Positions 11,554-53,259 of a stretch of 64,000 bases of DNA are shown here, piece after piece. Made by a program: the position numbers and the translations under genes. The stretch lies in the NCBI RefSeq assembly GCF_988242995.1, contig NZ_OZ547043.1; one strand, written 5' to 3'. The notes beneath the pieces are model-generated. The model saw only the letters and a program-made list of their open reading frames with translations, did not search any database and was not told where the DNA came from. The number at the start of each line of letters is the position of its first letter. Positions within the stretch are counted from its first letter, which is position 1.

Positions 11554-11592
11554 CACGCTACCGCCCCTGGCTTTACAGCTACCAGAGCACTA
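11554..11592 (-). promoter_or_regulatory. JUMPstart element with ops site (RfaH-dependent antitermination) upstream of the O-antigen operon
   Basis: Minus-strand reading is cagtgctctggtagctgtaaagccaggggcGGCGGTAGCGTG; the ops core GGCGGTAGCGTG is the reverse complement of 11554-11565. Confidence 0.8.
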
Positions 11593-16882: not shown

Positions 16883-17069
16883 GCCTGATGCGACGCTGAC
16901 GCGTCTTATCAGGCCTACAAGACCCGAGCACAGAACCGTAGGCCGGATAAGGCGTTCACGCCGCATCCGGCATTCAGTGCCTGATGCGACGCTGACGCGT
17001 CTTATCAGGCCTACAGGTCCCGAGCACAGAACCGTAGGATGGATAAGGCGTTTTACGCCGCATCCGGCA
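16883..17069. repeat. BIME: four alternating REP palindromes
   Basis: gcctgatgcgacgctgacgcgtcttatcaggcctaca occurs twice, alternating with inverted gtaggccggataaggcgttcacgccgcatccggca-type copies, between wcaK and wzxC. Confidence 0.85.
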
Positions 17070-36093: not shown

Positions 36094-36132
36094 CACGCTA
36101 CCGCCCCTGGCTTTTTAGCTACCAATACACTG
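36094..36132 (-). promoter_or_regulatory. JUMPstart element with ops site in the colanic acid operon leader
   Basis: Minus-strand reading is cagtgtattggtagctaaaaagccaggggcGGCGGTAGCGTG; near-identical to the O-antigen JUMPstart at 11554-11592. Confidence 0.8.
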
Positions 36133-49391: not shown

Positions 49392-50140
49392 AGCGCCAGT
49401 GCCAACGTTTTATCATCATCCGTACGCTCGTTTACCGCCGGGCTGGACAAAAACTGCTTTAACAATTCAGGTAATAAATCGAGTTGTTCCTGCGTTGCTG
49501 ACGCCAGTCCATTGAAAAACGGGGTAAAGAAAGGTACATGAGGAGAATTATCCAGCATATTTAACGCCAGTCGCTGGATACCATCCGTAAATGCTGCAAC
49601 TTTGTGCGCACGCCCAGTGCTGGTGAAAGTTTCCAGTCTGGAAACGGCATCTTCGTCGGTAATGAAGTGCGTCATATTGGCATATTCACCCACCATCGGC
49701 GTGAGAGGCAATTGCAGACCGTGACCCAAATCTACCACCATGCCGCCATCGCCAATCTGCATAATCAAGGTGCCGTCAGGCGATGAAATCAGTCCCAGAA
49801 ATGTACAGGCAAAATCGCGAACCGCTAATTCTTTGGCTTCCGCCTCGGCAAAAAGTCGTTGACGAATGGTCAGCACAATATCCGTGGCGAGGACATCATT
49901 AAGCCCCAATTCCCCGCCCTGCACTTTTTGCGACATATAAGCCATCGCTTCATTGACGGCGAGCATCGCGCCTTCGCCACCCTGCGAGACACTGCCTGCG
50001 CCATCAGCGACAAATACCGACAATAATGGCTGCTGGTCATTTAACCAGGCAACCTGCATCTGGCAGGCATCCTGGCAAGGCAAGTCCGCGCTGATGTGCG
50101 ACGTTCCAACGGTTGATGCATAGACCAGACGCCAGCTCAC
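49379..50140 (-). CDS. pphC: PP2C-family Ser/Thr phosphatase
   Basis: 253 aa; [27 protein letters not shown] and [16 protein letters not shown] match the PP2C fold; also known as yegK. Confidence 0.85.
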
Positions 50141-50796
50141 ACTGACGTCCAGCCTTTTGGCGCTTCCAGCACAACTTCCGTTCCCGGCGTGGAGCGGGAA
50201 ACCGAACGCAGCGAACTGGATAACCAGCTAAACAGTTCACGGAATTGTAATCCCTGCAGTGGCAAAGGCTGACGAACGCTGATTTGTGCCAGCGTCTTCA
50301 TATCCGCCCCCTGTACACCAATGGTAAAGAAGGCAAACTTCTTATCTTCTTCCCCCTGAAACACTTTGTTGGCGGCAGCCTGCCACTCATCGGTTGGAGC
50401 GCCATCGGTGATCAGGAAAATCCACGGGCGATAATAGGAAATACCATTTGCACGATACTCACGTTTCCGCTCCTCTACCATATCCAGGGCTTTGGTAATG
50501 GCAGCGCCCATTGGTGTATCGCCCTGGGCAAACAGGATGGGCGGGAAAAAATTAGCGGCGCTGGTAAAGGGTTGTTCCACATGCACCGGGCCGAACGTCA
50601 CAATGCCGAGTTCCACTCTTTTTAAGGCTAGCGAATCGGCAAGCAGTTCATCGCGAAAGGTAACCAATCCGGCGTTAAGTTCATTAATAGGTCTACCACT
50701 CATCGAACCAGAAACATCCAACAGCAAAATGCAGGGGCAACGTGGTTCCGGGTTACTGGCAAAATCGCTGGTGGCAAACGTGATTTGTTCGCTCAT
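50137..50796 (-). CDS. yegL: von Willebrand factor A domain protein
   Basis: 219 aa; [22 protein letters not shown] contains the vWA MIDAS motif DxSxS; overlaps the yegK start by 4 nt. Confidence 0.85.
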
Positions 50797-50977
50797 AAGA
50801 AATCCTTTCTTAGAGAATTATCGAGGTCCGGTATCATACCGATTGCAATAATGAAATAAGAGCAAACGAAGAAACTTTCAGAATTAGGCCCGGCGGCGCA
50901 GAAAATTTTGCTATTCGCCTCGCAAGAACGGAGAGCCGTCGATTGACACTAAGGGCGGAGTGACATAATTTCAGGAG

Positions 50978-51125
50978 TGAGGGTTAGGGAGAGGTTTCCC
51001 CCTCCCCCTGGTGTTCTTAGTAAGCCTGGAAGCTAATCACTAAGAGTATCACCAGTATGATGACGTGCTTCATCATAACCCTTTCCTTATTAAAAGCCCT
51101 CTTCTCCGGGAGAGGGTTTCCCGTT
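50978..51125 (+). ncRNA. sibA: Sib antitoxin sRNA, unit 1 (SibA-like)
   Basis: Sigma70-like promoter TTGACA (50943-50948), 17-nt spacer, TAATTT (50966-50971); terminator stem ccctct (51097-51102) / agaggg (51111-51116) followed by TTTCCCGTTT; fully antisense to ibsA. Ends are approximate. Confidence 0.6.
51017..51076 (-). CDS. ibsA: Type I toxin Ibs, 19-aa hydrophobic peptide
   Basis: Minus-strand ORF atgatgaagcacgtcatcatactggtgatactcttagtgattagcttccaggcttactaa = MMKHVIILVILLVISFQAY; SD-like aaggaaaggg upstream; not in the ORF track (below 60 aa). Confidence 0.75.
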   Translation of the reverse strand: MMKHVIILVILLVISFQAY

Positions 51126-51312
51126 TCAGCGTCCCGCTGAAATCGTCGGCTTACCTCCTTTCGCCCTGAATGCAGTCTATCGCTAACGCGTGAACAAAAT
51201 AGTTTCCTCTGTGATTATTGCGTAACGACTCGCAAAGAATATTTGCTGGCAGGATCGCAGACTGCAAAGCCTGCGGATTGACAATCTTATCGTGAAGGCA
51301 TAATTTCAGGAG

Positions 51313-51454
51313 TGAGGGTAGAGCGGGGTTTCCCCCGCCCTGGTAGTCTTAGTAAGCGGGGAAGCTTATGACTAAGAGCACCACGATGATGAGTAGCTTC
51401 ATCATGACCCTTTCCTTATTTAAGGCCCCTTCCTCGGGAGGGGCTTTCCCGTTT
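51313..51454 (+). ncRNA. sibB: Sib antitoxin sRNA, unit 2 (SibB-like)
   Basis: TTGACA (51278-51283), 17-nt spacer, TAATTT (51301-51306); terminator stem gcccct (51425-51430) / aggggc (51439-51444) plus T-tract; antisense to ibsB. Ends are approximate. Confidence 0.6.
51349..51405 (-). CDS. ibsB: Type I toxin Ibs, 18-aa hydrophobic peptide
   Basis: Minus-strand ORF atgatgaagctactcatcatcgtggtgctcttagtcataagcttccccgcttactaa = MMKLLIIVVLLVISFPAY. Confidence 0.75.
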   Translation of the reverse strand: MMKLLIIVVLLVISFPAY

Positions 51455-51640
51455 CAGCGTCCCGCTGAAATCGTCGACTTACCTCCTTTCGCCCTGTATG
51501 CAGTCTATCGCTGACTTGCGGATAAAATAGTTTCCAGTGTGATTATTGCGTAACGTCTCGCAAAGAATATTTGCTGGCAGGATCGCAGACTGCAAAGCCT
51601 GCAGATTGACAATCTTATCGTGAAGGCATACTTTCAGGAG

Positions 51641-51782
51641 TGAGGGTAGAGCGGGGTTTCCCCCGCCCTGGTAGTCTTAGTATGCTGGGTAGCTAATCAC
51701 TAAGAGCACCACGATGATGATCCACTTCATCATGACCCTTTCCTTATTTAAGGCCCCTTCCTCGGGAGGGGCTTTCCCGTTT
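51641..51782 (+). ncRNA. Sib-family antitoxin sRNA, unit 3
   Basis: TTGACA (51606-51611), 17-nt spacer, TACTTT (51629-51634); terminator stem gcccct (51753-51758) / aggggc (51767-51772) plus T-tract; antisense to the third ibs ORF. Ends are approximate. Confidence 0.55.
51677..51733 (-). CDS. Ibs-family type I toxin, divergent third copy (18 aa)
   Basis: Minus-strand ORF atgatgaagtggatcatcatcgtggtgctcttagtgattagctacccagcatactaa = MMKWIIIVVLLVISYPAY; same ATGATGAAG start and SD context as units 1 and 2. Confidence 0.65.
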   Translation of the reverse strand: MMKWIIIVVLLVISYPAY

Positions 51783-51940
51783 CAGCGTCCCGCTGAAATC
51801 GTCGGCTTACCTCCTTTCGCCATGCAAGCAGTCTATCGCTAACGCGTAGATAAAATAGTTTCATGTGTTATTACTGGATGCGTGCTCGCAAATGTGCCCG
51901 TCATTCAGACGATTCCCGACAGTGTTTCATAATTCCTCCA

Positions 51941-51958
51941 TTTTTCTCCCTTATTGGC
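51941..51958 (+). promoter_or_regulatory. BaeR box in the mdtA promoter
   Basis: TTTTTCTCCCTTATTGGC matches the BaeR consensus TTTTTCTCCATDATTGGC at 16 of 18 positions, about 55 bp upstream of the mdtA start; preceded by a second TTCTCCA half-site. Confidence 0.6.
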
Positions 51959-52011
51959 TGGCTACACTAGTATCATTCCGCGAAACGTTTCAGGAAGAGA
52001 AACTCTTAACG

Positions 52012-53259
52012 ATGAAAGGCAGTTATAAATCCCGTTGGGTAATCGTAATCGTGGTGGTTATCGCCGCCATCGCCGCATTCTGGTTCTGGCAAGGCCGCAA
52101 TGACTCCCGGAGTGCAGCCCCAGGGGCGACGAAACAAGCGCAGCAATCGCCAGCGGGTGGTCGCCGTGGTATGCGTTCCGGCCCATTAGCCCCGGTTCAG
52201 GCGGCGACCGCCGTAGAACAGGCTGTTCCGCGTTACCTCACCGGGCTTGGCACCATTACCGCCGCTAATACTGTTACGGTGCGCAGCCGCGTGGACGGTC
52301 AACTGATGGCGTTACATTTCCAGGAAGGCCAGCAGGTCAAAGCAGGCGATTTACTGGCAGAAATTGACCCCAGCCAGTTCAAAGTTGCATTAGCACAAGC
52401 CCAGGGCCAACTGGCAAAAGATAAAGCCACGCTTGCCAACGCCCGCCGTGACCTGGCGCGTTATCAGCAACTGGCAAAAACCAATCTCGTATCTCGTCAG
52501 GAACTGGATGCCCAACAAGCGCTGGTCAGTGAAACCGAAGGCACCATTAAGGCTGATGAAGCAAGCGTCGCCAGCGCGCAGCTGCAACTCGACTGGAGCC
52601 GCATCACCGCACCAGTCGATGGTCGCGTTGGTCTCAAGCAGGTTGATGTTGGTAACCAAATCTCCAGTGGTGATACCACCGGGATTGTGGTGATCACCCA
52701 GACGCATCCTATCGATTTGCTCTTTACCCTGCCGGAAAGCGATATCGCTACCGTAGTACAGGCGCAAAAAGCCGGAAAACCGCTGGTTGTTGAAGCCTGG
52801 GATCGCACCAACTCGAAGAAATTAAGTGAAGGCACGCTGTTAAGTCTCGATAACCAAATCGATGCCACTACCGGTACGATTAAAGTGAAAGCACGCTTTA
52901 ATAATCAGGATGATGCGCTGTTTCCCAATCAGTTTGTTAACGCGCGTATGTTAGTCGACACCGAACAAAACGCCGTGGTGATCCCCACCGCCGCTCTGCA
53001 AATGGGCAACGAAGGCCATTTTGTCTGGGTGCTGAATAGCGAAAACAAGGTCAGCAAACATCTGGTGACGCCGGGCATTCAGGACAGTCAGAAAGTGGTG
53101 ATCCGCGCAGGTATTTCTGCGGGCGACCGCGTAGTGACAGACGGCATTGATCGCCTGACCGAAGGGGCGAAAGTGGAAGTAGTGGAAGCCCAGAGCGCCA
53201 CCACTCCGGAAGAGAAAGCCACCAGCCGCGAATACGCGAAAAAAGGAGCACGCTCCTGA
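52012..53259 (+). CDS. mdtA: Multidrug efflux RND membrane fusion protein
   Basis: Conserved start [28 protein letters not shown] at the internal Met (ORF track begins at 51865), giving 415 aa. Confidence 0.92.

Follow-up and report, generated by a model that had tools for sequence, protein, structure and literature searches.

We conclude with high confidence that three Sib/Ibs type I toxin-antitoxin modules lie in tandem between yegL and mdtA, that the third is an intact module of the SibB/IbsB subtype, and that polymorphism in the size of this array is common. A preliminary description, made from the DNA sequence, had proposed three tandem units at this position and had named them as Sib antisense RNAs paired with Ibs toxins. 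The three units are real, since they are recovered as a repeat array, as three Rfam matches, and as three ORFs, and their Sib/Ibs identity is fully supported by the Rfam matches, the ORFs, and the annotation of K-12 and of O158:H23.

Organization of the yegL-mdtA array

In the window, by which we mean the whole 64-kb stretch of DNA that was analyzed, an intergenic gap of 1216 bp separates the yegL start at 50796 on the minus strand from the mdtA ATG at 52013. On the left, yegL (50137..50796, minus strand) is a 219-aa ORF for a vWA-domain protein that matches the yegL annotated in K-12 and in the nearest genomes. On the right, mdtA (52013..53259, plus strand), which encodes an RND efflux adaptor, was taken from the ORF list, and its ATG aligned with the K-12 mdtA start. 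Tandem Repeats Finder reported an array at 50964-51873 with a period of 328, 2.8 copies, 89% matches, and a score of 1426, and an independent repeat search returned three-copy repeat families within the gap at a spacing of 328-335 bp. The units had been called near-identical, which holds for units 2 and 3 (92% identity over 300 nt in the repeat search) and fails for units 1 and 2 (∼81% identity).

When we searched the window with Rfam, three full-length matches to SIB_RNA (RF00113) were obtained on the plus strand of the gap, at 50943-51091, 51278-51420, and 51606-51748. Their scores of 149.5, 143.5, and 139.2 bits for units 1, 2, and 3, against a gathering score of 56, and their E-values of 1e-30 to 1e-32 are far beyond chance; no other Sib copies were found elsewhere within the 64-kb window. 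Other RNA motifs in the window include two JUMPstart elements (RF01707) of 57 bits each on the minus strand at 11554-11592 and 36094-36132. JUMPstart motifs are ops-containing leaders typical of long polysaccharide operons, and from their position ∼15-40 kb upstream of yegL, these two are presumably part of the O-antigen and colanic-acid clusters. An algC RNA motif (RF02929; 21482-21531, minus strand) was matched at 72.8 bits (gathering score, 33.8), and naRNA4/CssrE, a nucleoid-associated REP-derived RNA (RF02564), was found on the plus strand at 16941-17011 with 79.7 bits.

Since the Rfam model begins at the -35 hexamer, the ends of the RNAs were taken from the K-12 MG1655 annotation by alignment. 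The SibA antitoxin RNA of unit 1 spans 50979-51122 (144 nt), with ends transferred from K-12 sibA; the SibB-type RNA of unit 2 spans 51314-51449 (136 nt), with ends from K-12 sibB; and the third, SibB-like RNA of unit 3 spans 51642-51777 (136 nt), again with ends from the K-12 alignment, all on the plus strand. Transcripts of about 145 nt had been proposed for all three units, and by homology to the K-12 annotation this length stands for unit 1 and is too long for the other two. A GC-rich terminator hairpin of 26 nt lies near the 3′ end of each RNA on the plus strand (51094-51119, 51422-51447, and 51750-51775 in units 1, 2, and 3) and is followed by UUUCC. The T-tract said to follow the hairpin is in fact interrupted (UUUCCCGUUU). 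Both MFE and centroid predictions gave a common fold for the three Sib RNAs, with a closing stem (P1), three internal hairpins, a single-stranded target-recognition domain 2 (TRD2), and the terminator. SibA folds at -58.5 kcal/mol with a z-score of -4.9, and the z-scores for the unit 2 and unit 3 RNAs are -4.4 and -4.7; none of 200 shuffles folded as well as the Sib RNAs.

Each unit carries a predicted plus-strand promoter with a TTGACA -35 element and a 17-bp spacer. In unit 1 (50943..50971), the -35 at 50943-50948 is paired with a TAATTT -10 at 50966-50971; in unit 2 (51278..51306), the -35 at 51278-51283 is paired with TAATTT at 51301-51306; and in unit 3 (51606..51634), the -35 at 51606-51611 is paired with TACTTT at 51629-51634, the hexamer also found in K-12 sibB. 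In each unit, the Sib 5′ end mapped from the K-12 annotation lies 7 nt downstream of the -10. A generic promoter and terminator consensus scan of 50700-52100 called none of the Sib promoters or terminators, because their -10 hexamers match the consensus at three of six positions and the T-tract is interrupted. These signals therefore rest on homology to the annotated K-12 transcript ends, and the promoter elements of the window units align position by position with those K-12 units that have annotated RNA ends. The same scan flagged only two features: the unit 1 terminator hairpin, read in reverse, and a promoter-like site upstream of mdtA, TTCAGA-18-CATAAT, at 51904-51933. Between unit 3 and mdtA, TTTTTCTCCCTTATTGGC at 51941-51958 (plus strand) closely resembles what we take to be the consensus of the BaeR box upstream of mdtA. 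By alignment, the extra Sib unit moves yegL further off and leaves the mdtA control region unchanged relative to K-12.

An explicit small-ORF scan recovered the three minus-strand peptides exactly as they had been quoted before. The gene ibsA (51017-51076, minus strand) has 19 codons, encodes MMKHVIILVILLVISFQAY, a peptide identical to K-12 IbsA, and lies wholly inside SibA. The gene ibsB (51349-51405, minus strand) has 18 codons and encodes MMKLLIIVVLLVISFPAY, identical to K-12 IbsB. The third ibs gene (51677-51733, minus strand), also of 18 codons, encodes MMKWIIIVVLLVISYPAY, which matches IbsB at 15 of 18 residues and differs from it by L4W, L5I, and F15Y. All three ORFs are hydrophobic and fall wholly within the Sib RNA of the opposite strand, and in each case the ATG is preceded by a Shine-Dalgarno sequence, AAGGAAAGGG, plus 2 nt. 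The plus strand also contains mechanical ORFs of 27-48 codons that run within and past the Sib RNAs (51057-51140, 51368-51514, and 51714-51842). In the P6 palindrome, the ATGATG half mirrors the ibs start; the first and third of these ORFs start there, and the second starts ∼20 nt upstream and reads in frame through ATGATG.

Proposed repression of the ibs genes

The K-12 sibA/ibsA and sibB/ibsB pairs occupy the same locus in the same orientation, and their promoters, RNA ends, and terminators are homologous to those predicted for the window units, with peptides 1 and 2 identical. Relative to K-12, the window has one extra SibB-type unit, located between the sibB-like unit and mdtA, and the -10 of its unit 2 is TAATTT, whereas that of K-12 sibB is TACTTT. 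The mechanistically characterized K-12 pairs sibC/ibsC and sibD/ibsD have the same RNA architecture, and the positions of their TRD1 and TRD2 and of their overlapping 19-codon ORF align with those of the window units, but these pairs sit at other loci (fau-serA and yqiK-hldE) and have different TRD sequences. In K-12, overexpressed Ibs homologues are toxic, and the cognate Sib RNA represses them (Han et al. 2010, PMC2943612). That work showed that Sib has two target-recognition domains (TRDs), which act independently in repressing the ∼160-nt, fully complementary ibs mRNAs: TRD1, the P5 loop, pairs inside the ORF, and TRD2, the single-stranded J1/7 segment, pairs with the translation initiation region. 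Pairing of Sib with ibs leads to a translational block and mRNA decay, and discrimination among paralogues depends on sequence variation in both TRDs (PMC2943612). When mapped onto the window, TRD1 falls at 51023-51045, 51355-51377, and 51683-51705 and TRD2 at 51076-51095, 51405-51424, and 51733-51752 in units 1, 2, and 3, respectively.

Based on these correspondences, we propose that every 328-bp unit has a strong sigma-70 promoter (TTGACA, 17 bp, TAATTT or TACTTT) from which a structured plus-strand Sib RNA of 136-144 nt would be produced and that a weaker, putative minus-strand promoter would produce an ibs mRNA of ∼160 nt fully complementary to Sib. The ibs mRNA would be translated into a hydrophobic inner-membrane peptide of 18-19 residues. 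Sib TRD1 would target a site inside the ibs ORF, TRD2 would cover the Shine-Dalgarno sequence and the start codon, and the resulting pairing would block translation, promote mRNA decay, and keep the toxin off. This mechanism of repression is established for the K-12 homologues, and we infer it for the units described here by homology. As for the ibs promoters, alignment of the window units to the literature-mapped ibsC promoter gave no confident site: the ibsC -10 (TACGAT) falls on no convincing hexamer in these units, and a GACGAT lies 7 nt nearer the gene.

Array size across E. coli strains

The complete genome nearest to the window is that of O158:H23 CFIAFB20140388, which is 99.9% identical over 1601 bp and has the same three units with identical, RefSeq-annotated peptides. 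Peptide 3 occurs there with the same sequence at the same position as WP_100249716.1, annotated as 'type I toxin-antitoxin system Ibs family toxin'. O157:H7 also has three units between yegL and mdtA, all annotated in RefSeq, and carries other alleles, its unit 2 encoding MMKWIIIVVLLVISFPAY and its unit 3 encoding MMKILIIVVLLVISYPAY. Peptide 3 of the window combines the W4/I5 N-terminus of the former with the Y15 of the latter. With all three ibs genes annotated in both of these genomes, the units are not hidden, contrary to the preliminary description. The covariance model found two, three, three, and four Sib genes in K-12, O158:H23, O157:H7, and B20159, respectively.

To place the array among strains, we drew two even-step samples from a ranking of 5,419 matching complete E. 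coli genomes, which together yielded 98 informative rows. In the first sample (39 informative rows), no genome had one unit, 17 had two, 19 had three, and 3 had four or more; in the second (59 informative rows), the corresponding counts were 1, 24, ∼24-25, and 9. Over the 98 rows, ∼44% of genomes have three units, ∼42% have two, ∼12% carry arrays of four or five, and a single unit is present in one genome. These frequencies are estimates from ∼98 rows, sampled systematically from a genome collection that is itself biased. The range is illustrated by N1420 with one unit, O157:H7 with three, B20159 with four, and CUVET19-1704 with five. In CUVET19-1704, two adjacent ibs genes (2351-2407 and 2679-2735 of the retrieved locus) have one and the same protein product, WP_100792650.1, and this identity suggests that they arose by duplication very recently. 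The allele set of the window is less common, as six genomes match the 1601-bp region at ≥99%.

These counts bear on the proposal that three units represent a notable expansion. The premise behind it, that K-12 carries two units here (sibA/ibsA and sibB/ibsB), is correct according to the MG1655 annotation. That the expansion is notable is not supported; three units are one of the two commonest states of an array of one to five units. The alternative that K-12 and most strains already carry three comes close for strains in general, at least three units being the state of a slight majority, and does not hold for K-12. Searching the literature for Ibs/Sib copy number in different strains gave no hits. 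Fozo et al. 2010 (PMC2887945) reported six to seven Ibs genes in O157:H7 strains versus five in K-12 and discussed the tandem duplication of ibs-sib loci. The array belongs to a well-characterized family, and its configuration is common and already annotated.

Divergence of units 2 and 3 and integrity of unit 3

Sib-2 and Sib-3 differ at 9 of 136 positions, with five of the differences in TRD1 and four in the P6 hairpin loop, where they correspond to ibs codons 3-5. TRD2 is identical in both and is part of a longer stretch of identity that takes in the terminator. The core of the SibB-type TRD2 is the same in the four strains that we compared, and K-12 sibB and B20159 unit 3 are each one base off in the TTTAAGG that flanks it; for instance, just after TRD2, K-12 sibB reads TTTATGG whereas window units 2 and 3 read TTTAAGG. 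The K-12 Sib pairs, on the other hand, all differ in both TRDs.

Since repression needs only one of the two TRDs (Han et al. 2010, PMC2943612) and TRD2 is shared, neighboring SibB-type units are predicted to cross-repress; units 2 and 3 may well do so. Whether they would behave as one cross-regulated pair, with either Sib repressing both ibs mRNAs through the shared TRD2, is a refinement of the main reading that we regard as only slightly less likely to be right than wrong. The confinement of all nine differences to TRD1 or the P6 loop is consistent with such a pair, as is the observation that SibC given the TRD2 of SibD repressed ibsD (Han et al. 2010, PMC2943612). In K-12, however, where every Sib pair differs in both TRDs, cross-reaction was seen only for ibsA, and the function of TRD2 needs structural context and contact with the P6 loop (PMC2943612), which differs between units 2 and 3. 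The broader form of this proposal is more tentative still: the extra unit may be non-orthogonal, part of a cross-repressing SibB-type set with a shared TRD2 and a gene-converted TRD1 and P6 loop, in which one Sib would silence several ibs mRNAs. The shared-TRD2 pattern of differences between units 2 and 3 is the only mildly new point of the locus.

Strains differ in how the TRD1 and P6-loop variants are combined, and this shuffling has the look of gene conversion among the repeats, not of one simple unequal crossover. As the origin of unit 3, one unequal crossover between the third and fourth units of a four-unit array does not fit. Unit 3 is closest to the unit-4 TRD1 region (three differences) yet has a P6 loop of the unit-3 type and a spacer of the terminal type, and these mixed features imply a gene-conversion patch or several events instead of one crossover. 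For the array as a whole, the variation in size would most likely stem from two processes acting between the 328-bp repeats, namely, unequal recombination and gene conversion.

We also considered whether unit 3 is a decaying, non-functional duplicate, a pseudo-module no longer transcribed or toxic. Its -10 reads TACTTT rather than TAATTT, and its peptide carries three substitutions relative to IbsB. The expressed K-12 sibB uses the same TACTTT, however, and L4W, L5I, and F15Y are conservative hydrophobic or aromatic changes that are also present in ibs genes of other strains. Furthermore, the -35 of unit 3 is a perfect TTGACA, and its ORF, Shine-Dalgarno sequence, and stop codon are intact. 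The covariance model gives it 139 bits, a score that lies within 10 bits of those of units 1 and 2, its fold and z-score are comparable to theirs, and its 91-nt core is found at ≥99% identity in 124 genomes. A pseudo-module is therefore unlikely, and we give this reading very little weight next to that of an intact SibB/IbsB-type unit. Lastly, short-read assemblers tend to miscount sequences such as tandem 328-bp repeats, but a collapsed or expanded repeat is excluded as the source of the third copy. The units can be told apart, with an 8% difference between units 2 and 3 and with TRD1 and P6-loop alleles particular to unit 3, and the identical three-unit array is present in a complete genome (99.9% over 1601 bp). 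Three units occur in ∼40-50% of complete genomes.

Ibs copy-number variation between strains has been documented since 2010 and is a routine part of RefSeq annotation, and the third unit has little significance beyond its correct annotation. The survey provides a useful figure in the range of one to five units and indicates that the two-unit state of K-12 represents only ∼40% of strains. If the SibB-type units do cross-repress as a set, this set would be a natural intermediate as duplicated antisense toxin-antitoxin pairs diverge towards specificity.
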